Source of the DNA: Paraspadella gotoi | Lineage: Eukaryota; Animalia; Chaetognatha | Direction of reading: 5' to 3' | NCBI GenBank assembly: GCA_051294375.1 | Contig: CM119267.1 | Location: 1,879,368-1,943,367, forward strand | DNA length: 64,000 nucleotides | Shown here: positions 26,662 to 62,600 of the stretch, piece by piece | Layout of the letters: the number at the start of each line of letters is the position of its first letter | Position numbering within the stretch: the stretch's first letter is position 1 | Position numbers and translations under genes: made by a program | Notes under the pieces: model-generated | What the model was told of the DNA's origin: nothing | The model's input: only the letters and a program-made list of their open reading frames with translations | The model's database searches: none

Positions 26662-26693
<32 letters not shown>

Positions 26694-37521: not shown

Positions 37522-38345
37522 ATGGAATCACTATCGAATAAAAACATTTTTGACGCTAACATAATTACTCCGTTTTGCATGTTAGCGGTCGGTTCTTCAA
37601 ATTCAGGTTCATAGAAACTAGTTAATTATTTATCACTACTTAAAAAACATGTTGTTGTTTTTTTTTACAGGAAAAACTACATTTGTTTCAAATCTCATAA
37701 AACACAGCGGGGAGATAGTCGACCAACCATTTGGAAAAATACTAATCTGCCATCAAGCGAACGGAGACAATTATAACAACGACAACTTTCCGGCGCCTCT
37801 TTCCATCAAGGAGCGCCATCGCTGGAGCAAGTGGAAGATCTTGCCGAAACTCCAAACAGCGTCTTGATCTGCGACGACTTGGACAACTCGGCCGATCTGA
37901 ACTACGACCTCTTGCAGCGCATTTTTTGCGTAATCTCGCATCACTCGGTATGACATAAAAATTAATATAAATATCATTAGATTGTTGATTAACTTTATTT
38001 TTATTGTTTTTTTACTTTAGAGACTAAACTGCATCTTCATACTTCATAATCTTTATTCGAGACAAAATCCAGTTTTGAGGACTCTAAATTTAAACGCCTC
38101 TTATCTCGTCTTGACCAAGTTCTCCCGCGATCGAAGCGTCTTTCAAGTTTTAGGAAGACAACTGTATCCTGACAAGCCCAACCTGCTCGTCGAGTGTTAC
38201 GTCACAATCAAGAAAACTCGGAACATCAGTTTCCTTATCTATTGATCGATTGTCATCCCCATAGCAAGTCGAAACGTTAAAGATCAGATCGCGGATCTTT
38301 CCCTTCGAGGCGCCCTCTGTTATTTACAGAAGCAAGACGTCGTGA
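37522..38345 (+). CDS. Polinton DNA-packaging ATPase (A32/FtsK-like), 3 exons: 37522-37606, 37671-37947, 38021-38345; small frameshifts
   Basis: Spliced: ...LAVGSSNSG|KTTFVSNL (Walker A), VLICDDLD (Walker B), ISHHS|RLNCIFILHNLY, RTLNLNASYLVLTKFSRDRS..QVLGRQLYP, PYLLIDCHP, KIRSRIFP. Introns 37607-37670 (gttcat...ttacag) and 37948-38020 (gtatga...ctttag). Confidence 0.9.
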
Positions 38346-38719
38346 TGAAGCCACGGAACAATCTGGCCGCCAGAGAGCGTTTCGCCACCCAGTTTCCGCT
38401 TCTAAAAAAAGTTAACAAACTCCCGCGCAAACATCAAAAAGCATTTTGGCGTTCAAAAAAATCGAACGAAGCCTGCGTATGTCTCAGCGAAATATGCTTG
38501 AACGTTCTCAAGCGTAACATACCGGTAACCGGAAGTCAGTTATCTCGATTACGCCCATATAAGAAGCAGATGCACGCTCTCTCTCTCAGAAGTTCGCCCA
38601 TGAAACACCGAAAGCGAATCGTACAAAAAGGAGGCATGTTGTCTACCCTGATTTCCTTACTAGCTCCCTCTATCATCAGCCTCATCGTCGAAGCGGTCGC
38701 CAGAAAGAAAAAGAAATAA
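38345..38719 (+). CDS. Small basic Polinton virion/core protein ending in QKGG plus hydrophobic amphipathic helix
   Basis: CLSEICLNVLKRNIPVT..QLSRLRPYKK...RKRIVQKGGMLSTLISLLAP matches the small conserved Maverick gene that follows the ATPase; ATG overlaps the ATPase stop (TGATG). Confidence 0.75.
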   Translation: MKPRNNLAARERFATQFPLLKKVNKLPRKHQKAFWRSKKSNEACVCLSEICLNVLKRNIPVTGSQLSRLRPYKKQMHALSLRSSPMKHRKRIVQKGGMLSTLISLLAPSIISLIVEAVARKKKK

Positions 38720-38722
38720 ACG

Positions 38723-39673
38723 ATGTCGTCGAAGCCGTTGAGATACGCGGAGCGCATGTTTCTCGTTTCCGCAAAGGATTTGAAAAAACTCGGTTACAAC
38801 GTCCCTCCCACCGTCTCCTCCAATCACATCGTCGATTCCTTCGCCCCTAACCCTTCGCCGATTCCACCCAAGAACGTCAACATTCCCGAAGATTGTTACA
38901 TGGTTGACTTTAACAGCGAGTTTCTCAAGTCTAAGAAGCTCGCGGAGAACTTGGTGGAGAGCGATTGGAGGGGATTGGAATCGAGAATATCGCCGCTGAT
39001 CGAAAACATTAGCAAGGATCGATTGATGCGAAACAGAGACAGAATTAAAAGCGAAATTCTTTCTCTCAATGGAGTAGAGATAAAAAAAGATAGAGTTTTC
39101 GTGGATGACGTTTCGGTGGGCGACGTCGATGAAATCTCTAATCACTTGTCGTACACAAAGTCCATCTCCCCCGATCAAATTCAAAATTATTTGTTTTGGT
39201 TGAAAGATCAGAAGCCATCGAAAGAAGATGTCTCTCTCCCCGAGGACGTCAAAGAGATTCCTCAAACTTCGATAAAATTAGATTCCTCACCCGTCGTTAA
39301 AAAATCTGGCGTCATTTCGACGCCGGTTAAAAAGGCGGGAATCTCTCAGACTCCAACCAAGAGAATTAACGCCCTATCTTCAACGCCGGTCAAGAAANNN
39401 NNNNNNNCCGGAACGCCCGTTAAAAGACCGGCGCCGTCTTCACCCGCGGTCACCACTCCGGTTAAGAAGATCTCTACCCCTACCAGAAGAGAGGAACCGA
39501 AAAAGAAGACCGGGAGCCCCTTTAAAAAGAAAGTCACGACAACGACAACGACGTTAAAAAAAGCGCCGACGATCACTTCTCCGCCCAAAACTAGATCCAG
39601 AAAAAAGACGGTAGATACGGAGGATGTCCAACAAAAGAAAAAAGCTCNNNNNNNNNNATACCTCAGTCTCTGA
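38723..39673 (+). CDS. 316-aa protein with K/P/T-rich tail carrying repeated S/T-P-x-K/R motifs
   Basis: Open ORF between the small virion gene and the integrase; STPVKK, QTPTKR, STPVKK, GTPVKR, TTPVKK, STPTRR, GSPFKK, TSPPKT; two 10-N gaps. Confidence 0.75.
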   Translation: MSSKPLRYAERMFLVSAKDLKKLGYNVPPTVSSNHIVDSFAPNPSPIPPKNVNIPEDCYMVDFNSEFLKSKKLAENLVESDWRGLESRISPLIENISKDRLMRNRDRIKSEILSLNGVEIKKDRVFVDDVSVGDVDEISNHLSYTKSISPDQIQNYLFWLKDQKPSKEDVSLPEDVKEIPQTSIKLDSSPVVKKSGVISTPVKKAGISQTPTKRINALSSTPVKKXXXXGTPVKRPAPSSPAVTTPVKKISTPTRREEPKKKTGSPFKKKVTTTTTTLKKAPTITSPPKTRSRKKTVDTEDVQQKKKAXXXXYLSL

Positions 39674-40793
39674 CAAAGAGAGAAAGAACAAAACGATAGG
39701 CGACATTTACTACGACGCGAAACATCCGGCAGGCTTTTCCACCGTATCCAGAGTATTTCAAGCTGCTCGTCGACGAGACCCATCCATCGTCAAGTCTGAC
39801 ATACAANNNNNNNNNNGCGCCCAAAGAGTATTTACTAATTATAAACGCCCCCCTAAAAAGCTATTCAGAAAATATTACGTTTTGAGACGAAATTCTGAAT
39901 TCAGCATCGATTTAGTCGACGTTCAAGCCTTGAAGACCCGTTCCAACGGGTTTGCCTACTTTTTATCTTGCGTAGATGCCTTTAGCAAATGGGGATGGTG
40001 TCGTCCGTTAAAAACAAAGACCGCTTCCGAAGTCGCTTCCGCTTTCGCTTCCATCATTGAAGACAATGGTTTTCAAGCCCCTGACTTGATAGTCATGGAT
40101 CGGGGCAGAGAGTGGAGCGGAAACTTTGCCAGATTGATGGAGGCGCTGGAGATCGAGGTCGTATACCCGCCCAGCGGAATGAAGGCTCCGTTGGTCGAAT
40201 CATTCAACTCGACCATAGAATCTTATCTTTACAGAGTCATGTACGCCATGTCCGACTGGAATTTCGTCAAGTATCTTCAACCCTGCGTCAGCGCCTACAA
40301 CGCTCGTCCTCGAGCGTCGCTTTTTGGAATGTCACCTGCCTCGGCCCATCGAGCCTCGAACGAGAACGAACTGAGAGAGAAGTATTTGAAAGCCCGTCTC
40401 GCCCATCGCGCTAAATACGCCGGCCGTCGCCCAATTTTTAAGGTCGGTCAGTCAGTCAAAAGAGTTTTGAAGCGGGGTCCATTTTCGCGAGGATACGCTC
40501 AACGTTTTCAGGATCAAATTTTTCGCATCTCTCGCGTACAGCGAACGGTGCCTCCAACGTATAAATTAGAAAACTCGCGAAAGACGTACTACGATCATCA
40601 GCTGGTCGCCGCCAAAGAACCTAATCGCCCTCGAGAAAAACGTTACTTTGTAATTAAAACGCGCAAAACCGACGGTAGAAAATTAAGGTCTGGAAATCGT
40701 TCCGGTCAGTCGACCAGCTACTTGGTCAGATCGAGCGACTCGGATCGCGGGCGTTGGATGAGTCAGGAAGATGTCGATCGCCTCGTTGACTGA
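39624..40793 (+). CDS. Polinton retroviral-type (RVE, DDE) integrase with C-terminal SH3/GPY-F-like and degenerate chromo-like region; true start probably near the N gap at 39648
   Basis: IYYDAKHPAGFS; FSIDLVDV (D1); SCVDAFSKWGWCRPLKTKTASEV; IVMDRGREW (D2); LVESFNSTI (E); FKVGQSV...FSRGY...PPTYKL; YLVR...RWMSQEDV. Confidence 0.93.
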   Translation: MSNKRKKLXXXXTSVSDKERKNKTIGDIYYDAKHPAGFSTVSRVFQAARRRDPSIVKSDIQXXXXAQRVFTNYKRPPKKLFRKYYVLRRNSEFSIDLVDVQALKTRSNGFAYFLSCVDAFSKWGWCRPLKTKTASEVASAFASIIEDNGFQAPDLIVMDRGREWSGNFARLMEALEIEVVYPPSGMKAPLVESFNSTIESYLYRVMYAMSDWNFVKYLQPCVSAYNARPRASLFGMSPASAHRASNENELREKYLKARLAHRAKYAGRRPIFKVGQSVKRVLKRGPFSRGYAQRFQDQIFRISRVQRTVPPTYKLENSRKTYYDHQLVAAKEPNRPREKRYFVIKTRKTDGRKLRSGNRSGQSTSYLVRSSDSDRGRWMSQEDVDRLVD

Positions 40794-41796
40794 TTCCGAC
40801 TTTTACGTCATGATGAGTAGCGACGGAGTCGATGACAGCTTCGTAGAGGGCAACGTCAGCGGAGATTTTCGTCTTCGTTTACCGGATCCCATTCAACTGG
40901 ACGGCGGAGTTTGGGAATGCGCCTTATTAGAATTCAGTTACATTAATCATATCTATAATGTACTCAACCCTGAGGAAAACTATATATTAATTTTCGACTG
41001 GCTTTACAAAATATCCGACGACCCGCCCATCCCAATTTGGGGAAATTTCACCTGGATTAAAATCCCTAATGGCAACTATCGAACCGGCGATCAACTCTGT
41101 CAAACTTTGAACAAATTATTGACAAAAGCGGTTCCTCGCCTCAACGACGTNNNNNNNNNNAATTCCATCAACAGAAAAATATCGTACAAGATCGCCAACG
41201 AGTACGTCACCTTAAAAATTGTCGGCCCCGTTCTCTTTCTCATGGGAGTTAACACGGAACCCGCGAATGAAAAATACTTCATAATTGGTAAAACGAAACG
41301 GGGTGATAAGTACGATTATCAATACGTCAACACCGACGGAAAGACGGTCAAGGAAATNNNNNNNNNNGACAATCCAAATGTCGTTTTAGTCAGCGCTAAT
41401 GACGACAAGGATGGGGAGATGGAGTTGGTGGTGCAAATGGAAATAAGCACGGCCCTGATGGTATATTGCAACTTCCTTCGACGTTGGAGAGTCAGCAATT
41501 CTTACAGCTCTTTATTGAAGATTGTGCCCCTAGAAAGACCCAAGGAAGAAGAAGCCCCATCTCGCAAACTGTTTCACATCAAATCGCCCATATATTTGGA
41601 AGTGGAAAGGAAGCACTTGGACGTCCTGCACATGTCCATCAAAAATTTCTTTGGTCAAACCATAGTTTTTCAAGTGAGTCTAGGCATTTTTTTTTCTATA
41701 AAAACTCAAAGTTATTAACTTTTTTTTTTATTTCAATCGCAGGAAGGATTGACTTGGGCCTTACTTCATTTCCGTCGAAAAATACCGAGATATTAA
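40771..41796 (+). CDS. Minor capsid/penton (single jelly-roll), 2 exons: 40771-41673, 41743-41796
   Basis: N-term DFYVMMSSD...NVSGDFRLRLPDPIQLDGGVWECALLEFSY; LMVYCN...SLLKIVP...PIYLEV; splicing out 41674-41742 (gtgagt...tcgcag) restores the typical C-terminus IVFQ|EGLTWALLHFRR. Confidence 0.88.
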
Positions 41797-41804
41797 AAAA
41801 AAAA

Positions 41805-42296
41805 ATGTCGGACATAAACTTTCTCCATTTACCGTTTCATCGATCCGCTCCCTCTAGAGGCGCCGTCTATCCTCTTCGTCGTCTGGCGCCTTCTCATCCG
41901 TATCAAGCGGTGGGCGGGGGAGTGTCGAACGTTTTCGCTCGTTTAGCTAAATTTATAGTACCGTTCTTTAAAAAGGGAGTATCTTTGGTCAAACCGGCTA
42001 TTAAAGCGGCCGCACCAGCGGTGAAAAAAACTTTGAAACGAACCGGCGACGCCTTAGCCAAGGAAGCCGTTTCTTCTGGCATTTCCGCCTTGACCGACTT
42101 AACGACCGGACAGTCGCCTAAGAAATCTATAAAGAGAGGAGCGGATCGCGCCAAGGGAGTGGTCAAGGATAATCCTAACCGCACCAAGCGTTCGACTGTC
42201 AGAAGGCCTTGTGACGGCGCACTCCACGCCTGCTTTGGAACAAGAGAGCCCGTCAATAATAAAAAAAAAAAAAATAAAAAAACAATACTTAATTAA
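41805..42296 (+). CDS. Basic virion protein with GG/GxG motif followed by an amphipathic helix (adenovirus pVI/pX-like analogue); 3' end probably frameshifted, may extend to ~42395
   Basis: YQAVGGGVSNVFARLAKFIVPFFKKG...KTLKRTGDALAKEAVSSG; typical Maverick position between penton and major capsid. Confidence 0.75.
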   Translation: MSDINFLHLPFHRSAPSRGAVYPLRRLAPSHPYQAVGGGVSNVFARLAKFIVPFFKKGVSLVKPAIKAAAPAVKKTLKRTGDALAKEAVSSGISALTDLTTGQSPKKSIKRGADRAKGVVKDNPNRTKRSTVRRPCDGALHACFGTREPVNNKKKKNKKTILN

Positions 42297-42405
42297 CCAA
42301 GGCAAGACGCTCTCTCAACAAGGGAAAAACGGCAAAGGATCAAGAAAAAAACGTAAAAAGATTTAACTCCTCGCTTCAAAAATATCCTTTATTAATAAAA
42401 AAAAG

Positions 42406-44100
42406 ATGGAAGATAAACTTTTTCGCGCGGGCAGGCATTAAGAGAGGCCGAGCCTTGCGTGGAAGAGCGCCCCTGAACGTCTTCGAAGGCGTCTCACTAA
42501 TCCATCCTTATACTTAACCTATCCCATACCACTCTCTGCTCTCCTGATCTGCGACACTAATCAGCATGCGATCGACATGCATCCTCACTGTCTACGTACT
42601 AACAAATCTAACGCCGTACTGTCAAGGGAATACGATGCGGTCTACCACATTACTAATTCACTGTACGAATCGCCGCAGCATCACACCTCCCGACTGCGCC
42701 CTAACAAGAAGCACCGGCCCTACAGTACGTCCCATCCCTCACTGTTTCACGGGCAACGAGGCCGTTGTATCACGAGAGCAGTCCCTATCACGCGTTAGTT
42801 TCTGCGACCAATTCGCTGTGACATCGCCGAACAGCAATACCATTCTTGTTCGATCTTCCTCCCTGCAGCGAGTTTTCTAGATATGAACGGATCTTTTTTT
42901 CATCGTCGATCTCTCGATAACTACAAGGCCGGATGCGCAAATTCCGCGAAGTAACAGACGCCGCCACTAGCGTTGGCTATAATCAATAACGTTTTCTTCT
43001 TCGATCTTTGAAAGCGTGACCTTTAAAATACAATTCCAGAAAACCTGAGCGATAATTTTCACCTACGCCTTTTCCTCATACTTCAACACGGCTTCTCAAT
43101 TAACTCGTGCGGAGGCTCAAGCTAAGTTATCCGTCGGGATGGGATCTGGACGACAATTTTCGCGGCGAACGAAGCTGCAGGCCGCCGGCAACAAATTCCG
43201 CCTTCAAGACACGCTCTCAATGGTTTGGCCGCGAAATTTGGTCAGGTTGATCGGATTCGTCAATCACGCGGCATGTGGAATCAAAATAAATTACTGGGAT
43301 TCCGCAAGTCAACGCCTCTCTCGACGTTTGTTCGTAACAAAGATAATTTTGTGTCTACTTAACGCGGGGCGACCACCCTCGGACTTTAAGTTGAATCTGA
43401 AACAAATGAGGCTCTACTGAGAAAAGTTGGTGTTTACCTTCGATCAATTGAGTATTCGAACGCCGAACTCGCCACTCAGAGCCGCCAAGTATACGTTGCG
43501 ATCTAACTCGACTCGCGCATTACCATAGCGGCGGTCGATGAGAAGACGGCGCCAGTTCGAATCGGTTTTCCCCTTCCAACATTTTTCCAGATTTCATACT
43601 CTGTTGCTTCATCGAGACCGAAAACTACCATCGGAAGCTTTCGCTAAAAATCCTTTAATTTTGAAAACTTTTCCTTCAATCTCTCGAAGCTGGTCGTCGA
43701 GTCGGAAATCTACCTCCAATTGGCATTTGGCATAGTCGTTGAGTTTCTCCAAGACCTCCAAGGAGAGAGGACTTCGCCCTCGCCTATTACCATCTTTTCG
43801 AGTCGGACCTTTCTAAAATTGAACGTGGTTTGCCCATAACTCAAAAGATGTTCGCCGACGGGGGGTACGCCATATACGTCATGTCCAACGTCCGGTAAAC
43901 GGACCGTTTCGCCGATCACCGTGCTCCCCGACAGATCGTCAATTCGCGGATCGAGGTTGTTGATGTTTCTTCGGCCGATACACTAATCAGCTTGCCCCGC
44001 TCTCTGCTATCTACATGGTAAAGCCCTATTCTCACAGACATACAAAAGCTTGACCCTCCTTCTTGTTCAGCGAGATAAGCGGCACGTATTTCGCTGGATT
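42406..44100 (+). pseudogene. Major capsid protein (double jelly-roll, hexon-like); heavily frameshifted in this assembly
   Basis: Fragments in changing frames: PLNVFEG (~42471), LAIINN..SIFESVTFKI (~42970-43030), FTYAFSSYFNT (~43057), NIFPDFILCCF (~43577), EAFAKNPLILK (~43635). These resemble the Polinton MCP motifs NNxLHSLF, YPYRAYIE, LPxxIIIGFV and KNPFNF. Confidence 0.72.
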
Positions 44101-44137
44101 CACGCGTCAGGCTCACCAAAGACTTTTAAAAAAAAAA

Positions 44138-44700
44138 ATGGATTCGAGTCGGATGAATAAAATTGACCGCAGTCGGATCCTCTACGGTAGCGCAATCTAC
44201 GGTGGCATTTTTGCGCCTCTATACTACTCCCCCCCTCAGTCGAACCGTCGATCGTCTTTACGAATTTGGACCCCGATTAAATTTGAGGCTCGCATTGGCT
44301 TATTGTTTGCAATGCCGACGAGCATAGATACTTCGTCATGGACGCTTCGGGCGATTCGCGCGATCGATTTAAACCCCCCCCCTTATCTTTCGCCGATCGA
44401 ATAAAAAACCATAGTTTATTCCAACGTGGGTCATTCAGTCGGAACAAACTCAAACTTGCTTCGCTCATTGTCTTGGTCTTTTTACTCTTTCTGGCTAGAG
44501 GGATGTCGGCCGAGAGGGATCGTCGAGGAGGTCTACGATTTATCCCCGGGTCACGGATACCATGGAACACGATTTTAATCGCCACTCTACTGAATCAGAT
44601 CGTTTGGACGCCGAAGACGGACGAATCGTGCCATTTTTCGCCCGCCCCAATAATTACTAGTAAAGACTATAAAGCAAAGACATGTCGATCGAAGAGATAA
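44138..44700 (+). pseudogene. Adenain-like cysteine maturation protease; frameshifted
   Basis: YGGIFA, NLDP, GSHWLIV (His, 44287-44307), YFVMDASG (Asp), QSEQTQTCFAHCL (Gln/Cys, 44436-44474); directly after the MCP. Confidence 0.75.
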
Positions 44701-46907
44701 ATAAATAAAAAAATGGCTAAAAGCAAAGAAAGGTGGAGCAGCGACGGGCGTCGTAATAAAAGGACGCAATTTTTGGTGGAAAAAAGAAAAAAATGCGGAA
44801 AAAAGGAAAAAAATGCAAACTGCGGAAGACGCAAGCAAGAGGGCCAAAAAAAAAATGTCACGGAATTACGCAATGACAATATGTCTAGACTAGACTTGTA
44901 CAAAAAAAACTTGATTGAGATTTTGAACATTAAAACGTTACTCACCGATATTTCTCTCTCTCTCTCTCTCTCTGTCTTCGATGATGACGATGATTAGATT
45001 TTGGAGGGACAGCGACGGGATGCGAAGCTTCTATTCTTTCTTTATCTTTAACTTAACTGTTAAAAAAAAGGGAGAGAGAAAAAAAAATAAAATTCATCAA
45101 AAAAAAAATGGTCTAAACTGCGGGGCGCTGAGTGAGCGCCGATCTCGATTGAGCGAAAGAGAGAGATATCGCTTCATCGAAAACTTTTTTCCATTTCTCT
45201 CTCTCTCTCTCTCCCCCCCTTTTTTTTTTCTTACCCATTATCTAAACCAAACATCGCCGTCGCCTCTCACAATATCGCGGCGACATTAAAAAAAAAAATA
45301 AATCGGCGGCAAATTTTTTTTTTTAAAATTTCGATAGTATATTTTACCGATCACATCGATATATCTCTCTCACTTCAATCTCCGAGAGACGACGCCTTTC
45401 TACCATCGGCAAAAAAAAAAAAAAGGAAAAAAATGTCCTCAATTTTTTTCGTTTTCCGTCGGTGAGAGGATATCGATTTCGTGCCACTCAAATCTAGAGG
45501 ACCATCTCCGTTCAAAATTAAAGAAAAACGGATTAAATTGGAAAACGATCCTCATAAGAGCCATTTGGCTAAAGCAGTGGGGAATGGCGGGCTCTTAGGT
45601 CGAACGCTTACCATTTGCTGACGAGGCGAACTTCGCTTACCTCGAGAATCGACTAATAAATGATGGGGGTCCAGAACATTTCGCGGAGTCGAGCCACGGT
45701 TTAAGCATTACTAAGCGATAGATGAGGCGATAATAGTCGCTCTGTTCCGAAACGATTCCAAATGGTGCGACTATCTGCCGAGAGTGGCGGTGGAACGAGC
45801 TTCGCGTTTGTAGATGCAAACGACGGCAAGGGGCGTTTCCCCAATCTCCGTGCACCACGGGACGCCCCTGGAAAATCGGACAACGGGTGCCCCATAACGG
45901 TGGTCCTTCGGTTCCTGGAGCCAGAAATTTTCGTACATTGAGGTTAGTTTTTTTTTTTTTTCTCTCATATATATTTTTTTTTAAAAATAAACCAAAAACC
46001 TTTTTAACTCGCCTTTTATGTCTCTTCGTCTCTCTCTCTCTCTATTTTTTTTTCTATTCAGCATTTTATCTCATCAAACCGTCACGGCCTGCTCTCCTGA
46101 GGACTCGAACCGTCTGCTTGACGATTGAATCAGGAGTCGCCGGCGAGAGAAGAGATGAGCCGATCCTGGGAGAATTCGTCTCGGCGTTTTGCCGGGTTCC
46201 GGGTTCGGGGAGAGGCCTAAATCTCTCCTGATAAACGCCGCGATCAATTCGAACCGCGGCGGTCGGGCGTCCTTCCGACGCCGGCTCTTCCTCGGAAACT
46301 TTCCTTCGTGGTCGAGCGGGTGATGGAGTGTACGAAGAAGAAAAGTCAGTAAGCGCCAAGAATAGAAATCGTGGCTGTCACCTCTCTGTCTTCTTTGTCT
46401 TTTCTTCCTCCACCTATTATCCTCCTCCCTTTCCTACTCCTCTCCCATCTTATTCAACTCCTCGCTCGCTCCTCTCCTCCCCCTCCCTCCTCCTCCTAAC
46501 CATTCTACCGGCACCGACGAAAAGGCCAAGGGGATCGAAGAGAAAGGACCGTCCGTCGACAGAGCCGACCTATGACGAGCGACGACGGCACGACGACAGC
46601 CACTCAGAAGGAGAGGAGAAGAAACAACGGAGGGAAAAAGAAGACAAAAAAAAACGAAGAAGAAAAAACGAGAAGAAGAAGGAAGAAGTGGCCAATGTTA
46701 TTGCGATCAACTTTGAATCTGTTTAAAACGATATATCTTTTTGAAATCTGTTTAAAACATATCATTTTTCTCTATCTCTTTCGCTGTCTAACTTTAATAG
46801 ATCTTCTCTCTCTCTTCCTCTCTCTTATCTCTTTTGGTGCGAAACGAAAAAAATAATTTTTATAATAACAATTTAATTAATGTACAATACAATACATTAA
46901 TTTAATG

Positions 46908-49900
46908 TTATAATTTCCTTTTTTCTTCTTTTTTTTCTCGAACAATGAGCTGCCCCAACGATCCCGGGCGCGATAATCGGCGCCAGAGCCAGGGACCCGC
47001 AAATTTAGACAGCCAGAATCTCTTTGTCGTCCGAAGCGGCGGCACGCTCTTGTTCTTGAACGAGGCGTTTTGGAGGTAAATTTTCAGATCCTGTGTTGAG
47101 CTGCCTCTGAGTCCCGTTCTTGACGGGAACGAGAGTTTTTCAAGGAATTCTAAAGATATCGTGATTCAGTTGGGTTTTTTGATCGTGGCTCGGCATGTCT
47201 CCCTTGGCCCGAAATCTCTTGCGCTCGTCTTCGACTTTGCGTGCCGCGCAAAAGCGCGCACGCAAGTCCTCTCGGCGCGCGCACGCTTTGCGTGCCGCAG
47301 GGGGGGATCGCACCTCTCGCTGCAGCGGCTTGTTCAGCCTGCGCAGCGGTGAGTCGCCGCGGCTTGGTCAGCCCGCGGCTAATGTTTTCCGGAGGAAGAA
47401 GATTCGCGTTTCTTCTTCTCTCTTCTTCTCTCTTTCTTCTTCTTCTTCTTTAGCCTCGGAGTCGGAGGATGCATGACTGAAGTCACTGACGTCGAGAAGA
47501 AAAGTTTTTCGGTCTCCAAATTGGCGCATTTTTCAAGAAAGTCGTCGCCAATCGGCATTCGCCGATCGAAACTCGAGGGGTCGAGGAGGCGAGGAGAGGG
47601 AAGCAACTGCCCCGAACGTACGTGATACGACTCTATATCTCCGCGCCACCGTCTCTGCGCCCGGGAGGAGGTCGGAGGTAAAATCGTCCTCGGTCGTCTC
47701 GTCATCAGTCGTCGTGCTTTTAGCGTCGGCCTGATCTCAGGGGGCGGGTTGGACCGGCTCGTCGAGCACGGAAACGGCGTAAATTTCGGGCAGCAATGTT
47801 ACAAGCTGCTAATTTATCGTCTGCTTTCCGCCAATGTTCGTCTACGAAAGAGAGAAAGAGAAAGAAAGAGAGAGGATTGAGGAGGAGAAAAAGTTGTTGT
47901 AAAACAAGTTAAAAATGAAAATGCGAAAGAAGAAAAAGAAGAGAGAGAGCAGAGAGAGAGAAAAAGTTACTTTTGAAAAAACACGACCCTGGCTTCGGAT
48001 TTCTCTCTCTGTAAGCCAAAAGAATCGAACGCTTTTCGCAGGCGGCGTTGTTGACAAAGACGAGGATGCTCCAAGGGATATACGCTGGTGTCCAACATTC
48101 CGACCACTTGCCGAGGATCTCGCCAAAGTTGGATCGTTGCGCGTCTCCTTTGGCGATACTCAATGACAACAAACCGCCGTCCGTGGTCCGTGCGAACGAA
48201 ACGACCTCGGGTCTCCCCTCGCAATCCGGAAACACCCTCTTGACGCCTTCGCCCCCCCATAGGTAAAATCTGCCATCAGCAGCTTGCTAGCGTCCAATAT
48301 GGCGACGCCACCGAATGATCGGCGAGAAGTTTTGCCTTGACTCGCGCCAACTTGACGACTGGCCAAATTCGGCGAAACGACGTTGAACCGAGTGAAAGTC
48401 TACTCTGGACGACCAGCTTGGGAGAGGTCGTCGGTGAACTCCGGACGCAGCTTGACGGTTTGACAAAGAGCCAAGCGATTCATTATCGGTATCGATCCTG
48501 CGGGCGATGACGATCGGTTAGTTACATTATTAATTATTAGCTTTAATTATTAACTATTAGTTTAATGTATTAATTTATTAGTTAATTATTAATCTAAATT
48601 ATCTAATTAATTAGTTAATTAAAATTCCTAACTCCGAAACAGGAATTGCACACACACTTGAGAAGCGTCTTTCATGAAGGAAGTTTTCGCCAGTCTTTCT
48701 CTCGCGGCGTGGGAAATGAATCGCACGAAATCCTTCTATTAAAACGGGCTTTTCTGTCTGTACATTCGATCGCCGCAATGAAAGGGTCGCTGAGTTCCGA
48801 CCAAACGACAGGGCGAAAGCGAGACTCTCTCTAGTCAAAAAGTATCTCTCTATGTCCAGTCAAGCAGGCTATCAACTTTTCCGTTCAACGCCCACTCTGT
48901 GAATTCGTACTTTCGTAGCCAGGGAGACGACTAACGGACTGAGTCTCGGAGTGCGAAGCTCTCTTTCTTCGGGGAGAATTGGGAAAGTCTTTTCATGGCG
49001 TGATGAAGATTGCTCCGGAGGGTTGCGCAGATCGACTTCGAGAATCAAGCCTTCGCCATCTTTCGTCCCGACGCGTGCACATTGCGCGCCAATTTCCGGG
49101 CCGTACAACTCGCTTCGAATCTCTTTACCAAACGATCATTGGACACGAAGCGTAACCGGGCGTTAAGGTAAGGCCAACCGCGGACAACTGGCGTACCGTA
49201 ATAAACGAACAGGATGTGAATAAAATTTGTTTTTTTTTTTTGCCCCGCTCTTTTTTATTCCCCATTCTATTCTTACAGATTGTATGCGCGTCCACGTGAA
49301 CGATCAAACGCGTCGCCGAAAATTCTGGGGATCGTCGTCGTTGCTTAGCCGGATTCGTTCGGACGACACCGGAAAAAAAATCGTGAGTTGAACGGGGAAA
49401 CGAACCCTCCCCCTATAAAGGACGCAGAGATATGTTAATTATCATTAGATTTTTTTTTTTTTTTTTTTTGGGTTTGTTAATTTATCTCTTCTACCTGAGC
49501 CATGGGATTCGAAGGCTAAAAAATTCTTGACGAGTTTTTTAAGTAGAAAATGAAGCTTCTATTTCCCAGAGAATTGAAAGCATGATGTCTTGAACTGAGA
49601 GAGACGCAGAAAATAAATATAAATAAATAAATACATAAATATCTCTTTCTCTTATCTTTCCTCATCTTAATCGCCAGCTTCCGCTGACGTAATAGGCTGC
49701 GGTTCGAGATTGAAAGTTTTGTCTGTCATCACACCTGCTAGTTCGAAACTATATCACAGAGAAATAGAGAATCCAGTTCTATAAAAAATAGAAATAAATA
49801 AAATTGCGCCCCTCTTATTTCTTAATGAATTTATATATATATATATTCTCACGTGTAAATAACAGATATTCGCCAGAGTGTCGAAGCGACGAAGGCGCTC

Positions 49901-52900
49901 CCAGATCCTCAATTATCTCGAGTATTCCTCTTCGGATATCAATCGCTGCCGCCATCTTCGTTCGAAATTATTTCTCTCTTCGGTGCGGGTCGCGAAAAGG
50001 CGAGGTATCGTTTCAAAACGTCTCGAGACTGATGTAATTGAAGGGCCATGGTCATCTTGAACGCATGACAGGTCCGATCAGACTCTCGCGCCTGAAAAGG
50101 AATCGATTGACGTGAGCGTTAAGTCATGCGGAAACTATGATCGCGGGTGGACTCTTGCCTCGACAAGTTGCGCCAAACCTCTCCTCTCGACGCGCCGCAA
50201 ATGAACAATGTATTTTGAAGCATTCTTTCGCCCGCGAATCCACGATATTTTCCCAGGGATCTGTTATCAAAAATTGTAAGAGTCCGGATGGTCAAGTAGC
50301 GATTTTTGTGGCAATCGCAACGAAAAAACCTCAAGCCTCTTTCGCCCTCATCATCCGTCTCTATTTTCGTCGTCGTCGTCGTCGTCGTCGTCGTTTCATC
50401 GTCGTCTTCGTCTTCTCGTCCCTCGTCGTCGACGCGCCTTCCGTTCTCGTACCACTCGATCGGTAACAATGATCGCACAAAAAAGTTGATGTCCAGCGGG
50501 TGTGAAAGGCGTTGCCCTTGGCCAATTACGTTGCCGATGTTTCTAGACCATCTTTGTTGGCTCCCACGCGCAGGCTTGAGAATGAGATTTGGGTCAAACC
50601 TTTCCGGCGCCTGATTAAAAAAAAAATTTTGTAAAGATGAGTCGAAAGATGAAAACGGCAATGCTTTCTTACTTTTGATGGAAAGCTACATTATCCATTT
50701 GCCCGATGATTGGTTTTTTGCGCGTTACAAAATCAGTAATGTGCTTTGAAACGTATGACTCCGAGCGATGATCGTGATGTCGCGTAACCTTTTCACCCTC
50801 CAGATTTCTCTTTTTGCCATGAAGAAGACCAAAAATCGGACCAGCTCAAGTTGAATGTCGATTCGGCTCTTCGTTCATCACCCATTGGGAAGTTCTGTCG
50901 CAACAAAGCGCGATGATGATCGGAGTCCAGGCGCGGCCCGTTGAAGGAAGCGAAGACCCGGCGTTCGTCTCCCACGTATTTTCTCACGGGAAAGTCGTCC
51001 GAGGGTAGGGAAGATTTAATCTTATCGGCGAAGCTGATGCCGATAACTTGGTCCGATATTTCTTTCGCATCCTTGATCCTTGTTTACCAAGGATGATATT
51101 TGTTTGGCAATTTGAGCAACTATCTTAGCGTGAAGACTTTTCATGAGGACAGGAAATCTTATCCAAGACAATCGGCCTCATCGCTCTTCATTTCTTTTAT
51201 CTCCCTCTTCTCTAGGAACCGTGTGAACTGGACAGACATCTCGTCCTCAATATCGACGCGTAGGCCGACAGTAAGCTCAACTCGGCGTGAAAAAAATTTT
51301 CCTGCGCGTCATAATGCCAACATTAAGTTCCTTCCGGTGATTAAGTTTCTAATTGGGCCGTCGCCGTACTTCTCGCCCGCCCATAAACGGAGTGAGCCGA
51401 AAACGTCGACGACTAAAGCGTGCTAAAGCAGGGACACTTTGATGCACAACGAACGACTTCCGTGCGATATTACCAAGACTGCGAAGAAGTAGTCGAGAAA
51501 GGTTGGTTATAGAAACCAGATGTCGTTCGCTATACTTGAAACGTTGTATCTTACATGCTCGATTCTTTTTTTAATTATTAAAAGATTACAAACTTTTAAT
51601 ATCCATTGGAACAGATTCGTTCTTATATAGAGACTTCTGCTACGGTATATATATTCTTTCTAATCCTTTAATCCCCACCTTCTTTTTAAAAATTGCATAA
51701 ACGTTGATGCATAAATCGAGATTGAGTCTCTCGACGTGCGCAAAGGTGTTGGGCGTGGCCGGACAAGGTACTTGTTCTAAATTAATTCTATGCTGATATT
51801 TTCTGTAACTACTTTCTAATTCAGGGTGACTGCGAGGTTTATACAGGCATGCCAGAAGAGCCAACTTCAAGCATATGGGGCTGCGCGATTTCACATTTAC
51901 GACACATTTTTTATGAAGTAACCATTTAGGGGTAGGGAAGTGATGACCAAAAAGAGTCGTCTTTCCAGAATTTGGATAAAAACCCGCCAAGGTCAAGTCG
52001 GCTCGCTCAATTTTTGAATAGGAAATGTTAGACCCCATTTCGACTCTGTCGGATATTTGATTATACAGTTTAGCCAACATGGTCGATAAGATTTTCATGA
52101 TGCTGTCGCTCTCGTATATCACGACGCTTCTTTGATCGAAAAAGAAAGAAATGTAGTTGTCGTCTCTTTCGTTATAAAACTTGACGGAAAAGCATAAATG
52201 AATCTTTTAAAATCTTTCTCTTTTTCAGTTCTTTCTTTATTATCGGTAAAATTTCTTTCTTCAAGTGTCTAGTCTCTATCTCGTATGTTTCTGTGGCGAG
52301 AGAGGCACGAGTGAGAGAGAGAGAGAGAGCCACTGTGTGATAGAGAGAGAGAATGGTGAGACATGAGTTGGAACAAAAACTCCAGACGACGAGGACCAAG
52401 GAGATGAAAAGGAGGAAAGGAAGAGGAAGAGGAGGAGAAAGAAAATAGAAAAAGGAAAAGGAAAAAAGAAAAACAAAGGGAAAAGAAGGTTGAGATTAAA
52501 TGACAGACGGGAGAGGAAAGGAAAAGAAATAGCATTTTTAACGATTTTTATTATTTCCCACACTCCGCGAGAGATCGATCCAAGGTACACCAATATACTT
52601 CAGAATCTATCGTCATCCGAATAGCCTCATATGGCTATTAATATCCTGTCACCATTCCATCGCACGTTCCTAAGCAGAGAATACTTGAAGACGGAACCTC
52701 ATCCTAGTCTATTCATCTCTCTGACTGCGTCTAAATTTCTTCTAGAATTAGTCTATCGTCCCATACGTCAAATCGTTCGACCTCAGAAGACGTATCTTTA
52801 TCGTGGTTCTCCCTAGAGACATAGCTCGCCTCACCGGACCTCTTTCTCTCTCCCAGTACTCACTTCGGCAGGTCTCTCTCGATCGTGACACTGCTGAGCC

Positions 52901-55680: not shown

Positions 55681-55797
55681 GATTGATAGTCAGTATGAAG
55701 AATATAGCTTGGATCCAGACCAAAGTTTACATAACCCAAATATTGATTTTATAACAAATATCAAGAGCTTAGATTGTATATGATTAGCCATCTGTTG

Positions 55798-56625
55798 TTA
55801 ACGGAAAACATTGAATAAAGATATAAAGAGATCAAATTTTGAAGGTACCACTTGTAAGATCGGATACAATGATAAAGAATAACCTTGATAAAAACGACAG
55901 CTACAATTCCCTTCGTAGGGATCGGAATAAAAAATATGTGGTGATTTAGTATTACAAAGCTTATTAACTTCTTTCTGCCAGTGTAGATGATATCGACAAA
56001 ATAAGTTTTTATTGTCATCCTTAAAAATATTTTTGTGGGCGATGGAATCGTATCGCCATGACATACCCTCGTCGTTTAAAAGAGTAGAAAGCGAAAGACA
56101 CGCGTCGTATCGATTAAACCATTCGCAAAAATGATGCAATTCTCGGCCAATCGCGCAAAGAATGATAAACATGTCCTTGGGCAGGTGATCGCGGTAATCT
56201 TGCTCCGGAGAAAAAACAAACTGAGTTAATTTCAAACCGGTAAGAACGTCCGGGATGGTAGTAACAGATCTGACGACTTGCTCCATGGAGACGTACAAAA
56301 GTTGAAGGTTCGGTGCCGAAGAGAGACTCATGATTCTCACGATGTCTCGCTTAACTCTGAGCCAGCGCAAAGGAGGGTCGAAACCGTAACGAAGAAACGT
56401 CGCGTTAGCCAGTTCGGTCGAATGATGAAGAGGATAAAAGTTTTCGTGGAAGATTCGATCGGCAGTCGTTAAAGTCTGCAAAAGACGCTTGACTAAAAAG
56501 CCATAGTGCGATTTGTGATAGTTTCGAGGAGGGGGTGAAACTTTAAGACCCGACCCCGGCGTTAAGTACCACTTATCTTTGTCCGAGTCATCTTCGCATA
56601 GTTCATCTTCCATGGAGTCGTTCAT
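55798..56625 (-). CDS. Orphan 275-aa protein with acidic N-terminus and Cys/His-rich C-terminus
   Basis: Clean, non-low-complexity ORF, same strand as PolB, inside the element; no motif recognised. Confidence 0.7.
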   Translation of the reverse strand: MNDSMEDELCEDDSDKDKWYLTPGSGLKVSPPPRNYHKSHYGFLVKRLLQTLTTADRIFHENFYPLHHSTELANATFLRYGFDPPLRWLRVKRDIVRIMSLSSAPNLQLLYVSMEQVVRSVTTIPDVLTGLKLTQFVFSPEQDYRDHLPKDMFIILCAIGRELHHFCEWFNRYDACLSLSTLLNDEGMSWRYDSIAHKNIFKDDNKNLFCRYHLHWQKEVNKLCNTKSPHIFYSDPYEGNCSCRFYQGYSLSLYPILQVVPSKFDLFISLFNVFR

Positions 56626-56796
56626 CTTGTTTAATCAACCTAAACGATTAAGCACCCAGCGCGCGCGCATTGATTATTTAATGAAGCATCGCAGTAAAAA
56701 TGATAACATATTTTTTTTTTAAATTCAATCAACCATCGTTTAGATACATAACTTTTTTTTCATTTTTTCTTCTTATAAAAAAAGAAGAAAAAAGTT

Positions 56797-57720
56797 TTAC
56801 ATGGCCTTGAGAATTTTTTTGACCAACTTAAGCAACCCTCTAAACTCGTCGGCGGATAAAGAAAGCCCGGCCAAATTTGACGTGACGAAAAGAAGCCCGA
56901 GCGCGTTGTCGAAAAAGTAAGGCCTTAAAGCGACATTGGCCTTTGACGTTTCATCCTTTGACTTGTAAACGCTAAGGGATATCCCCAAGCTTTCCGTGAT
57001 GGCGTAGCGAGGCCCGTTGACAATGTCGGCAACATCGCTCAGACTCTCCAGCTTATTCAACTCGTCTTGAATGCGAACCTCATAGAGTTGAACCAAACGC
57101 TCCATCTCGTTCTTGTTGAGAACGACGCGAGTGACCGGCTCAATCGCCCGAGATTTAGACGATAAAGAGTAACCGGTACCCCCGTCAGGAGCAGACGACG
57201 ACCCCGCGCCATTTTGAGAAGGAACGAATCTTTCCTTGTGGACCACGATACCGTTGTTGTCCGAAGCGAGAGTGACCATTACGTAAGTCGAAAGGGTCCA
57301 GTAATCGCTGGGCGTCAACTTGGCGCTGCGATGCATGTCGTCGAGTCCTCCCCCTTCGCGCAAAGTCGGCTGACGAAGGAGAGCCTGCGGTCTAAAAAAA
57401 TATTTTTTTATTTACTTTTCTTTCTCTCTTTCTTTCGTCGGTTGTTTTTACAATTACCTCTTGCAAGGCTTTTTACCACCGCCGCTCGGAGACGCCGAGA
57501 CGTTAAAAGGCCCTGATGATGATGATGATGATGCGTGGGCGCCAATAGCCTCGTCTTCGCCAAATTGCTGATTCGACTGGTGTTCTTCGATGTAAAGGTC
57601 ATCGTCATCGTCATTCATCATATATACTAACTGGCGTCTAATTAAATACATGATAATTTTTTTATTTTTTAAAAAATAAACAAACGAAAAAAACTTACCT
57701 TTTCGCTTTGTCCCGTTCAT
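56797..57720 (-). CDS. Tandem PC4-like ssDNA-binding protein, 3 exons (57720-57699, 57626-57458, 57391-56797)
   Basis: GT-AG introns 57698-57627 and 57457-57392 join MNGTKRK|VYMMNDDDD...KPCK|RPQALL... in frame. C-terminal repeat ISLSVYK...NVALRPYFFD...AGLSLSADEFRGLLKLVKKI resembles PC4 (VDIRxY...GISLxxxQWxxL); an earlier repeat ends in RVVLNKNEMERL. Confidence 0.6.
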
Positions 57721-57754
57721 CTTTGAGCTGTTTGACCTCTCTTCTCAAATCGAT

Positions 57755-58372
57755 CAACTCCTTTTGAGTGTCTCGTAAAACCCCGCAAGGAAGAGAATGG
57801 TAGAATCTTTGTTTTGAATTTCAATTCTAAAAAGATTTATTATATTAATACATAATATAAATAATATATGTATATATATATTACTTGTTTTTATCTAGGA
57901 CTTTGAAGGAGTTTTCAAAACTTCTGGCCCTGGCGTAAGTCGTAAATTTATATTCGTGACAAATTTCACACAAAGTGATAAACTGTATAAAGAAAAAGAT
58001 ATTTTTTACTATTGCAATATCAAAGAGAAAAAAAATATAATTACCGAAATACGGCAAATGGCGCAGGTAGGATTTTTGGTAGAAATAATTTTGTCAAAAC
58101 AAAGAGAACACAATGGTGACCTAATAATTAATTAATTAGTTAATTAGTTAATTAAACAAACGTATAAAAGAAAGTGTCATTATGCTCATTTGTTTTTTTT
58201 ATAATAAAATTACGCGCTCTCATGGACATTTAAAAAACTAAAATAAAAAGATTTATGTTCAAAAAGTTACTTGAACGCAACATATATTTTACTATTTTGT
58301 TTAAATTCCGTGAAACAAATTGGGCAATTTAGAAAAAGAAGAATCTCCGTTAAATTGTGAAAAATCCTCCAT
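57755..58372 (-). CDS. Spliced RING-finger-like protein (not in ORF track)
   Basis: LNCPICFTEF (~58330-58300), H..ES (~58222), PLCSLCFDKIISTKNPTCAICRIS (58120-58045), then FITLCEICHE; introns 58213-58121, 58044-57983, 57884-57827; one homopolymer indel needed near the ATG at 58372. Confidence 0.6.
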
Positions 58373-58891
58373 ATAAAAAAGAAAGAAGAAAAGTTAGAAA
58401 AAAGAAGAATACGATCGACGTAGATCCGAGATTCAAAAGTCATTTTCTTTTATAGGTAAGAACATTGCAAAATATAACCTCACCTAGTTGAATGAGAAAT
58501 GACCAAGTAAATAAAATAATTTTACTAGCTCTCGATAATCTTTTCAGTGTAAATAGGCGAGTAAAAAAAAAATTCTTTTAACTGGCCAAAAAAAATAATC
58601 TCTTATCAATGATTTTTTTAAATTAAAGTCCGGTTTATTTCTAGTTAGGACTTCTTTCTCTTTTTCGTCTTCTTCTCTGTCTCTGTCTCTGTCTCTTCTC
58701 TTTCAAATTTTTATCATATAATGATGAAACACAACCTTTTTTGTAGTGTGTTTTTTCCTGGGGATCGTAAAGGCAGCAAATAGGACCCGAAGACGTGAGT
58801 AATTGTCTTATTTTAAATTTACATACTAAAAAGGAACAGAATAATTAGGTAAAAAACAATGGGCCTGGTGATTTACTGCCGCCGTGGAAAC

Positions 58892-59017
58892 GGCCGTCGT
58901 CGACGACGCCATTGATCACAACGACATCAAGCAGGCCGTCGTCAACGACACCATTAATCACAACGACATCAAGCAGGCCGTCGTCAACGACACCATTAAT
59001 CACAACGACATCAAGCA
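58892..59017 (+). repeat. 42-bp tandem repeat x3 (would encode AVVNDTINHNDIKQ)
   Basis: ggccgtcgtcaacgacaccattaatcacaacgacatcaagca x3. Confidence 0.9.
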
Positions 59018-59125
59018 CCTCGACTAAAAGACCGACAAAAACTACGATTAAATAACGAGTCCAACGACATCAACAACACTACAAACAAAATCACGACAAA
59101 TGATCGACTCGATAAAACAACGACA

Positions 59126-59524
59126 ATGGCAACAGCAACAACAAGTAAAATGAAACAACAACAAACCGAACGAGATAATACAGAAACAAAGATGTCATCA
59201 ACAAAGCCAACAATGACAATAACAACGACCGAGAAAAAAAACACAACGACATGGAGTCACAAACAAACGATGACAATGACGAGGCCAACGACGATGACAA
59301 TGAGACCAACGACGATAACAACGACGATGACAATGACGGAGCAAAGCCCGACAACGACGACCGAGAATAAAACCACAACGACGATGACAATGACGGAGCA
59401 AAGTCCGACAACTACGACCGAGAATAAAACCACAAGTATGATGACAATGACGAGGCCAATGACAACGACGACCGAGAATAAAACCACAACGACAACGACG
59501 ATGACAAATCCAAATACAATGACA
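59126..59524 (+). CDS. Thr-rich mucin-like ORF with 57-bp (19-aa) repeats, truncated by gap
   Basis: TTMTMTEQSPTTTTENKTT repeats; open up to the 100-N gap; could be non-coding minisatellite. Confidence 0.35.
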
Positions 59525-59624
59525 NNNNNNNNNNNNNNNNNNNNNNNNNNNNNNNNNNNNNNNNNNNNNNNNNNNNNNNNNNNNNNNNNNNNNNNNNNNN
59601 NNNNNNNNNNNNNNNNNNNNNNNN
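59525..59624. other. 100-N scaffold gap separating the two PolB copies
   Basis: Exactly 100 N. Confidence 0.98.
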
Positions 59625-62600
59625 GGTAAGGCCAAGCGACTGGCGTAACCGTAACTAAAAGAAAAAATGTGAATAAAAAAATTTTTTTTTTTGCTTTTTT
59701 TTATTCCCATTCCTTCTTACAGATTATTGGCGTCCACGTGAACGATCAAACGCGCCGGAAATTCTGGATCGTCGTCGTTGTAGCCGACTTCGTTCGATGA
59801 ACCGGAAAAATATCGTGAGTTGACGGAAACGAACCCTCCCCTAATAAAAGAAAGAGAGAGATTAGTTAATTATCATGATTTTTTTTTTTGTTCTCACTCT
59901 CTACCTGAGCATGGATTCAAAGGCTAAAAATTCTTGACGAGTTTTAGTAGAAAATAACTCTATTTTCACCCCCGAGAATTGAAGCATGATGTCTTGACTG
60001 AGAGAGAGAGAGAGAATAAAAAGAGGAATAAATAAATAAATAAATAAATATCTCTTTTCTCTATCTTTCCTCACTTAATCGCCGCTCCGCTGACGTAATA
60101 GGCGGGGTTGAGATTGAAGTTTTGTCTGTTCATCGCCCTATAGTTTTCGAATATATCCCCGAGAAATAGAGAATCCAGTTCCTAAAAAAAAAAATAAATA
60201 TATTACACCCTTATTTCACAATGAAATTATATATATATTCTCACGTTGTAAAATAACAGATATTCGCCCAGAGTGTCGAAGCCGAAGGCGTCCCAGATCC
60301 TCAATATCTCCGAGTATTCCTCTTCGGATATCAATCGCTGCCGCATCTCGTCGAAATATTTCTCTCTCGGTGGCGGGCGAGTATCGTTCAACGTCTCGAG
60401 ACTGATGTAATTGAAGGGCATGGTCATCTTGAACGTGATCAGGTCGATCAGACTCTCGCGCGAAAAGGAATCGATGACGTGAGCGTAAGTCATGGGAAAA
60501 ATGATCGCGGGGTGACTCTTGCCTCGACAAAGTTCGCAAGCCTCCCTCTCGACGCCGCCGCAAATGGAACAATGTATCTTGAAGCACTCTTCCGCCCGCG
60601 AATCCACGAGATTTCCCAGGGAGGTTATCAAAAACTTGTAAGAGTCTCGAATGGTCAAGGTAGCGATTTTGTCGAAATCGCAACGAAAAAACCTCAAGCC
60701 TCTTTCGCCGTCATCATCGTCTCCATTGTCGTCGTCGTCGTCATCGTCGTCGCTTTCATCGTCGTCTTCGTCTTCTTCGTCCTCGTCGTCGACCGCGCCT
60801 TCGTTCTCGTCCACTCGATCGGAACAATGATCGCACAAAAGTTGATGTCCAACGTGTGAAAGGCGTTGCCTTGGCCAATACGTTGCGGATGTTTTTGACC
60901 ATCTTGTTGGCTTCCTTCAACGCGCAGGCTTGAAGAATGGAGATTGGCGTCAAACTTTCCGGCGCTGATAAAAAAAAGAAATAAATTGTAAAGACGATCG
61001 AAAGATGAAAACGAATTTGTTTCTTACTTGTGAAAATACATTATCCATTTGCCCGATGATTGGTTTTTTTTTGCGTTACAATCAAGTGTGCCTTTGAAAC
61101 GTATGACCCCGAGCGATGATCGTGATGTCGCGTAACCTTTTCACCCTCCAAGATTCTCTTTTTGCAGAAGAAACAAAATTCGGCCCAGCTCAAAGTCGAT
61201 TCGATCGGCTTCGGTCATCACCATGGGAACGTTCTGTCGCAACAAAGCGCCGATGATGATCGAGTCCAGGGGGCCCGTTGAAGGAAGCAAAGACCGGCGT
61301 CGTCTCCCAGGTATTTTCTCACGGGAAAGTCGTCGAGGGGGGGAAGATTTAATCTTATAGGCGAAGCTGATGGCCGATAACTGGTCCGATATTTCTTCTC
61401 GATCCTTGATCTTTTACAAGGATGATATTTGTTGCAATTTGAGCAACTTTTAGCGTGAAGACTTTGATGAGGAAATCTTATCCAAGACCAATCGGCCTCA
61501 TCGCTCTCATTTCTTATCTCCCTCTCTCTAGGAACCGTGTGAACTGGAAGACATCTCGTCTCAAATCGGCGTAGGCGACAAAGTCAAACTCGGCGTGAAA
61601 AAAATTTTCCTGCGCGTCTAATGCAAAATAGTTCCTTCCGGGGGATAAGTTTCTATTGGGCCGTCGCCGTCTCTCGCCCGCATAACGAGAGTGAAGCGAA
61701 AACGTCGACGACGAAAGCGTGCTAAAGAGACACTTGATGCAAACGAAACGACTTCCGTGCGATTTACCAAACTGCGAAGAAGTTAGTCGAGAAAGGTTGG
61801 TTATGGAAACAAGATGCGTTGAACGTTGTTCTTGTCGATTCTTTTTTTAATTATTAAAAGATTACAAACTTTAATTCCTGAAACGTCGTTTCTTTTAGAG
61901 ACTCTGTACGGATATATTATTCTTCTAATCCTTTTCCACCTTCTTTTTAAAAATTGCATAAACGTTGATGCATAAATCGAGATTGAGTCTCTCGACGTGC
62001 GAAAGGTGTTGGGCGTGGCCGGACAAGGTACTTGTCTAAATTAATTCTTGCTGATATTTTCTGTAATACTTTCTAATTCAGGGTGACTGCGAGGTTTATA
62101 CAGGCATGCCAGAAGAGCCAACTTCAAGCATATGGGGCTGCGCGATTTCACTTTACGACACATTTTTTATGAAGTAACCATTTAGGGGTAGGGAAGTGAT
62201 GACCAAAAAGAGTCGTCTTTCCAGAATTTGGATAAAAACCGCCAAGGTCAAGTCGGCTCGCTCAATTTTTGATAGGAAATGTTGAGCATTTCAACTTGTC
62301 GGATATTTGATTATACAGTTTAGCCAACATGGTCGATAAGATTTTCATGATGCTGTCGCTCTCGTATATCACGACGCTTCTTTGATCGAAAAAGAAAGAA
62401 ATGTAGTTGTCGTCTCTTTCGTTATAAAACTTGACGGAAAAGCATAAATGAATCTTTAAAATCTTTCTCTTTTTCAGTTCTTTCTTTACTATCGGTAAAA
62501 TTTCTTTCTTCAAGTGTCTGGTCTCTATCTCGTATGTTTTGTGCGAGTGACGGGCCCCGTCGTCCAAAGGAACCAATTGAATGTTTACCAATACATTTCT

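Follow-up and report, generated by a model that had tools for sequence, protein, structure and literature searches.

Probable spliceosomal introns in core genes of a Maverick/Polinton element from the chaetognath Paraspadella gotoi

A 64,000-nucleotide (nt) stretch of the Paraspadella gotoi genome (assembly GCA_051294375.1, contig CM119267.1, positions 1,879,368 to 1,943,367; hereafter the window) consists of host DNA, rich in microsatellites, up to about 35.5 kb, and of a Maverick/Polinton element from there on. The initial annotation had named the element from the DNA letters, and its identity is borne out by homology to three proteins: a protein-primed family B DNA polymerase (PolB), a retroviral-like integrase, and an A32-like packaging ATPase. 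PolB has 722 matches at E<=0.001, including full-length Polinton-type relatives, and follows the PolB profile over columns 28-732 and then on to about 1070 of 1149. The integrase matches Pfam rve (E 1e-8) and an IMG/VR Polinton integrase profile (E 9e-47), and the ATPase covers columns 9-211 of 215 in a profile of 27 homologs, several annotated PF04665. The plus-strand module runs ATPase, small conserved open reading frame (ORF), PZ-like ORF, integrase, likely penton, protein-VII-like gene, and the expected capsid and protease; the minus-strand module comprises a RING-like gene, a 278-codon ORF, and PolB. This core gene order is that of an intronless relative, the adintovirus-type element L023. 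Catalytic motifs are retained in the exons, and the integrase and PZ-like frames are open.

The ATPase, penton, and PolB genes and their proposed introns are as follows:

37522..38340, plus strand: packaging ATPase in three exons, with two minor breaks of frame in the window sequence
37607..37670, plus strand: ATPase intron 1, 64 nt, phase 1, within Walker A, AG/G context
37948..38020, plus strand: ATPase intron 2, 73 nt, phase 0
40762..41796, plus strand: likely minor capsid (penton) gene, two exons, weak homology at both ends to L023 6933-7703
41674..41742, plus strand: penton intron, 69 nt, phase 0, in-frame stop inside
47300..52300, minus strand: PolB, whole gene, error-rich assembly copy
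59625..62550, minus strand: PolB 5' two-thirds, cleaner assembly copy past a scaffold gap of 100 N
60965..61027, minus strand: PolB intron 1, 63 nt, phase 2, Exo II motif
60182..60244, minus strand: PolB intron 2, 63 nt, phase 0, Exo III motif, three in-frame stops
59998..60074, minus strand: PolB intron 3, 77 nt, phase 2
59841..59904, minus strand: PolB intron 4, 64 nt, phase 2, AG/G context
59655..59720, minus strand: PolB intron 5, 66 nt, phase 2, motif A
48498..48632, minus strand: PolB intron 6, after motif B, about 135 nt; donor supported, acceptor uncertain
47842..47970, minus strand: PolB intron 7, about 129 nt; probable, ends uncertain

All ten segments start with GT and end with AG, as first described. 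Guanine-plus-cytosine (GC) content is 0.15-0.27 in the eight that lie in cleaner sequence (ATPase 1-2, penton, PolB 1-5; 63-77 nt), against 0.35-0.51 in ten flanking exons; PolB introns 6 and 7 have values of 0.21 and 0.35. The eight have T-rich 3' tracts, each contains a stop in at least one frame, and half of them (4/8) have lengths that are not multiples of three. An earlier suggestion of insertion at AG/G proto-splice sites is at best overstated, as two of the ten (ATPase 1 and PolB 4) have that context. Over 47.3-64 kb, intron candidates favour the strand of the genes, numbering 11 sense, 2 antisense, and 2 reversed, under a rule drawn up after the introns had been seen.

Were the segments coding, homologous proteins should align through them. 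A purpose-written, frameshift-aware profile-to-DNA aligner was run first with long gaps free of any splice signal and then with GT-AG ends required, using profiles of 34 PolBs, 27 Polinton-type ATPases, and the L023 penton. The homologs do not align through: free gaps open at all eight introns in the cleaner sequence (relative P0008, treated below, is the exception). These gaps fall at 37606-37669 and 37949-38021 in the ATPase (at most 1 nt off), at 41672-41740 in the penton gene (at most 2 nt off), and in PolB at 61052-60987, 60246-60184, 60082-60006, 59923-59854, and 59719-59654. Gap length equals the proposed intron length in six of the ten; in shuffled sequence a GT..AG of that length lies within 8 nt in 3-8% of trials each, for a product of 7e-9 (the six having been picked afterwards). 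With GT-AG required, the aligner returns exactly the listed coordinates for seven introns (ATPase 1-2, penton, and PolB 1-4), and the flanks of PolB 5 fall on profile columns 730 and 732 with a split codon between. When introns are forbidden, the alignment score drops from 101 to 69 for the ATPase and from 270 to 121 for PolB. An ungapped flank test at full-profile scale failed for PolB introns 1, 4 (upstream side), 6, and 7. PolB 6 and 7 stand in part: AT-rich free gaps of 143 nt (48631-48489) and 131 nt (47991-47861) exist, but the splice-aware run on this error-rich copy did not return the listed acceptors. Two GC-rich PolB gaps, at an acidic stretch and at a Cys-rich insert, were rejected as introns; relatives encode both.

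Pairwise comparisons agree. The read-through translation of PolB intron 2, with X at its stops, was the query that found the 722 relatives, and 12 of the 15 aligned top or selected relatives show a 21-column gap at that point, two others ending earlier. In a BLASTP comparison, the penton intron coincides with a gap of 23 residues, equal to 69 nt (pairwise E 0.019).

Taken together, GT..AG ends, a pyrimidine-rich 3' tract, and homology restored by removal are found in eight of the ten segments, with the PolB 6 and 7 acceptors uncertain. The best account is that short GT-AG segments, very probably U2-type spliceosomal introns gained in a functional Maverick lineage, interrupt the genes for the ATPase and polymerase, the likely penton gene, and the RING-like gene. 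The initial count of about 15 introns is supported, with eight confirmed by homology, two probable, and the rest from sequence alone; its description of the element as heavily intronized overstates an uneven distribution, with no intron found in the integrase, the small conserved ORF, or the protein-VII-like gene.

The quality of the assembly bears on this conclusion. The window stretch is present in nine sequencing runs from three studies, and contigs of four runs were aligned to 35545-47400, which covers the ATPase and penton introns. These introns are present in the short-read contigs and so are not assembly artefacts. The contigs match the window closely over 35.5-42.2 kb but show numerous small indels relative to it farther right, so assembly error probably accounts for many of the window's frame breaks. 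Two larger stretches of the capsid region skipped by the DNA contigs were rejected as introns, having non-splice ends. The two PolB copies (59625-62550 and 49167-52303) are separated by the scaffold gap and differ by 143 substitutions and 185 gaps, of which 128 are single-base and 152 are extra bases in the left copy; they are most likely one locus assembled twice. The earlier statement that the five upstream PolB introns occur in both copies is correct as sequence, but the match is probably not independent support.

The PolB exonuclease region also carries a Cys-rich, zinc-finger-like insert (60590-60500, minus strand) after an acidic run. The nearest PolBs share this insert, which is absent from most Polinton PolBs. 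An alignment of four Cys-insert proteins led to the DNA of five metagenome relatives (L022 to L026). Intron-like GT-AG gaps occur in PolB in four of these five, versus one of 21 IMG/VR loci scanned with a general alignment; the aligner found none in the L023 PolB. The gaps are:

L022, 1728-1821 (94 nt), 2712-2825 (114 nt), and 3119-3196 (78 nt): PolB introns
L024, 616-729 (114 nt): PolB intron, at the same place as the second L022 intron
L025, 487-535 (49 nt): PolB intron
L026, 738-798 (61 nt): PolB intron
L006 (IMG/VR), 3076-3159: PolB intron, 84 nt, GC 0.15, GT-AG, T tract; outside the Cys-insert set

The 78-nt intron of L022 follows the last codon of the motif A sequence DANNL, 1 nt from PolB intron 5 of the window. 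At the protein level, the position shared by L022 and L024 is where P0005, P0007, P0012, P0018, and P0028 either end abruptly or continue as read-through. A 42-row maximum-likelihood tree, with insert columns left out, groups the window PolB with L022, L024, and the Cys-insert PolBs in a set of 15 rows (Shimodaira-Hasegawa approximate likelihood ratio test [SH-aLRT] 96); L025, L026, and L006 fall outside it, and the L006 intron is likely an independent gain. The element is thus likely a member of a Maverick lineage that bears introns and not a copy in decay.

Dinoflagellate Maverick-Polinton-like elements provide a precedent for another source of introns. In the accounts excerpted from PMC11957031 and PMC12166617, these integrated viruses, related to Polintons, carry introners: multi-copy, transposon-derived, intron-generating units inserted mostly after integration. 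The narrow range of lengths in the window (58-77 nt) and the many unshared positions would fit recent introner insertions here too. However, the ten introns resemble each other only in composition (45 pairs, best z 2.9), and repeats at their junctions measure just 0-4 nt, with no target duplications. Dinoflagellate introners are multi-copy, whereas the window introns are mutually unrelated, lack an introner signature, and recur across a lineage. A recent introner origin is accordingly a poor bet, although an old, eroded one may underlie the introns.

Several results weigh against spliced introns in a living lineage. In splice mode, the aligner makes false GT-AG calls in distant controls (seven further calls among 18 IMG/VR PolBs and many more in another control set), so what carries the argument is that free gaps, length, phase, GC dip, and tract all concur. 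A YTRAY branch-point-like motif lies 20-40 nt before the acceptor in just four of the ten introns, in AT-rich sequence. Opposite PolB intron 2, the relative P0008 carries a 20-residue stretch that may be a read-through intron of P0008. No GT-AG joint appears in the contigs of any of the four runs over 35545-47400, none of these being recorded as RNA, and in run X9, guessed to be RNA, one 3.2-kb contig keeps both ATPase introns. (The same contig spans an oppositely oriented neighbouring ORF at flat depth, as DNA would.) The missing RNA junction, together with a window that is error-rich in places, would suit unspliced segments: AT-rich insertions or assembly errors with chance GT-AG ends, in dead genes. 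Yet the short-read contigs carry the ATPase and penton segments, and the coincidence of GT-AG ends, pyrimidine tract, and exact phase at all eight sites is far beyond chance, which leaves this explanation scarcely credible.

Other results on the same side concern the lineage. A self-comparison of the window found no terminal repeats, and the right end of the element meets a scaffold gap, so that mobility of this copy is a matter of inference. No host gene suited to a comparison of intron style was found in the window (70 flank ORFs searched against Pfam). Most intron positions differ between the window and its relatives. The 42-row tree was a short search without bootstrap, and a 165-row FastTree (nine of 174 rows dropped for low coverage) fails to join the window to the Cys-insert set, giving sister support of 0 and a branch of 1.3. 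A rival reading has the segments gained after one copy had become a fixed chromosomal resident, fossil or domesticated: one host locus, not a mobile lineage. The absent terminal inverted repeats, the positions for the most part not common to relatives, and the few differences in the element among several samples are all as a fixed locus would have them. But the same organism contains a diverged ATPase family whose own, different T-rich acceptor has AG before the codon that starts ATPase exon 3, at the position of the ATPase intron 2 acceptor and with other intron sequence (contigs with loose ends at 38025 and 38067, one each in runs X9 and X1). Moreover, PolBs from other samples carry introns, one of them 1 nt from PolB intron 5; the core gene order equals that of intronless L023; and the motifs are kept. 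Gain in a fixed resident is thus unlikely.

Introns are absent from 20 of the 21 IMG/VR PolB genes and from the published elements, and on this ground the ancestor is assumed to have had none. Because positions differ between relatives, gain would be ongoing and mostly lineage-specific, with mostly independent gains among relatives. We suggest that the introns were gained singly while the element lineage stayed functional, under selection, and that they would be spliced from RNA by the host spliceosome following transcription by host RNA polymerase II. The route is probably passive: an element resident in the host chromosome for most generations and transcribed in the nucleus would pick up introns as host genes do. 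Each intron would be tolerated as long as it is cleanly spliced, and jointly they would bind replication and packaging to the host spliceosome. We favour such passive gain over adaptation; no benefit to the element need be assumed, and the initial proposal of an adaptation to nuclear expression or export finds no support here. On a broader scale, the balance tips slightly toward a widespread, undescribed Maverick branch, marked by the Cys-rich PolB insert, that still replicates and packages while continually gaining host-type introns, mostly at different positions in each host, with a possible hot spot or 1-nt sliding at motif A.

How does this element compare with known systems? Adintoviruses, or group-I pPolB Polintons (Starrett et al., PMC8502044), are represented here by L023, in which ATPase, pX, PZ and VII-like genes, capsid, and protease follow one another as in the element; PolB is of the same type. 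L023 lacks introns. The window PolB has the Cys-rich insert common to intron-bearing relatives. Vertebrate Mavericks share the core set of PolB, integrase, ATPase, and capsid in two modules, but genes of intact elements contain no introns according to the excerpted account (Barreat and Katzourakis, PMC8097293), whereas core genes of the window are split. Nematode Mavericks are likewise integrated invertebrate-type elements with introns inside; as described in the part of the preprint available (Widen et al., bioRxiv 10.1101/2022.07.12.499685), these introns lie in captured cargo genes and the core genes are intronless, whereas those of the window split the ATPase Walker A and PolB motifs. The intronless core ORFs described for both groups are thus a point of difference. 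The main texts of the nematode Polinton survey (PMC10748475) and the adintovirus survey (PMC8502044), as far as available, do not mention spliceosomal introns; the sole occurrence of "intron" in the latter concerns a maturase. Cryptophyte elements carry group I introns, by the excerpt of PMC12220804. Full-text literature yielded no description of host-type introns in Maverick core genes; Repbase, subscription papers, and supplements lay outside this search, so a prior mention is possible.

The consequences are both practical and conceptual. The earlier expectation that ORF-based mining misses the element is supported: the ATPase exon pieces have no Pfam match, and database relatives appear as truncated or read-through ORFs. 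If the Cys-insert branch is real, such mining would miss its members or score them as dead. Since the ancestral genes are taken as intronless, every intron would be a gain, making the element a clean test system for new spliceosomal introns without introners; the branch would offer a natural series of known intronless ancestry in which to follow such gain. The lineage would have to be transcribed in the nucleus, which bears on Maverick replication in the cytoplasmic factories of helper viruses. The significance is tempered: introns occur in many nuclear DNA viruses and in DNA transposons (CACTA, for example), and splicing here is what we infer. Surveys judge a Maverick intact by its intronless ORFs (PMC8097293, as excerpted), and elements with introns would be overlooked or classed as degraded.

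The RING-like gene, for which at least three introns had been claimed, offers four clean candidates of 58-66 nt but no homologs for comparison. At three of their four junctions, open frames meet in phase; next to the fourth lies an exon that has stops in every frame. An additional, uncertain candidate ends at 58121. The features of this region, with a further candidate upstream of PolB, are:

56797..58330, minus strand: RING-like, coiled-coil, acidic, and C-terminal exons, possibly one gene; no homolog found
57983..58044, minus strand: candidate intron, 62 nt, GC 0.18
57827..57884, minus strand: candidate intron, 58 nt, GC 0.09
57638..57698, minus strand: candidate intron, 61 nt, GC 0.13, donor GTAAGT
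57392..57457, minus strand: candidate intron, 66 nt, GC 0.23
63455..63526, minus strand: candidate intron of about 72 nt lying 5' of the PolB frame, absent from the initial annotation; counterpart acceptor at 53890

The five candidate introns in this list are proposed from sequence features. Two more intron-like segments lie between the gene modules (45118-45057, minus strand, and 45943-46061, plus strand). A gene labelled PC4-like and said to hold two introns, which corresponds to the C-terminal part of the RING-like region, did not keep its label: it has no Pfam or Atlas match, its best PDB hit has E 0.28, and a single-sequence fold gives a predicted local distance difference test (pLDDT) score of 35.

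The remaining genes of the element are:

38345..38719, plus strand: small conserved Maverick ORF, which we take to be pX; ungapped alignment to the ORF after the L023 ATPase; no intron
38720..39673, plus strand: PZ-like ORF, presumably so from gene order, which is as in L023; open frame, no intron seen
39615..40793, plus strand: retroviral-like integrase; open frame, no intron found
41806..44700, plus strand: protein-VII-like gene, with major capsid and protease expected after it; error-rich, with low profile scores (41, 34, 23) and no intron-like GC dip
55798..56634, minus strand: 278-codon ORF, no assigned family; no intron seen

The penton label is our assumption from gene order and a C-terminal motif; similarity to the L023 ORF is weak (E 0.019), and in the error-rich capsid and protease region, where scores are weak, labels rest on gene order. 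No low-GC island lies between 42429 and 44891. An Atlas search with the 278-codon ORF gave scores under 0.8 only. A direct homolog search returned a single match for the integrase, at the 29% identity level, and none for an ATPase exon; viral contig scans with the close-relative alignment, the L023 penton, and the L023 capsid gave no matches.

Head to head with the ATPase lies a 503-codon ORF rich in Gln, Thr, and Glu (35945-37456, minus strand), with the short-read depth of the element and no Pfam match; it is possibly a cargo or accessory gene. GTCGTT-rich repeats, possibly subterminal, occupy 58900-59500 at the right end of the element before the scaffold gap. In the host flank, none of the 70 ORFs from 1-35.5 kb reached the Pfam cut-off and no tRNA was found. 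An inverted duplication there (19864-22757 and 24089-26910), with arms 100% identical over 2010 nt and beside N gaps, is probably an assembly artefact. The flank also contains tandem arrays of 12-nt and 18-nt units (29342-29656) and a short dispersed host repeat with a core of about 54 nt, present in four copies at 4632, 16626, 18998, and 23506.

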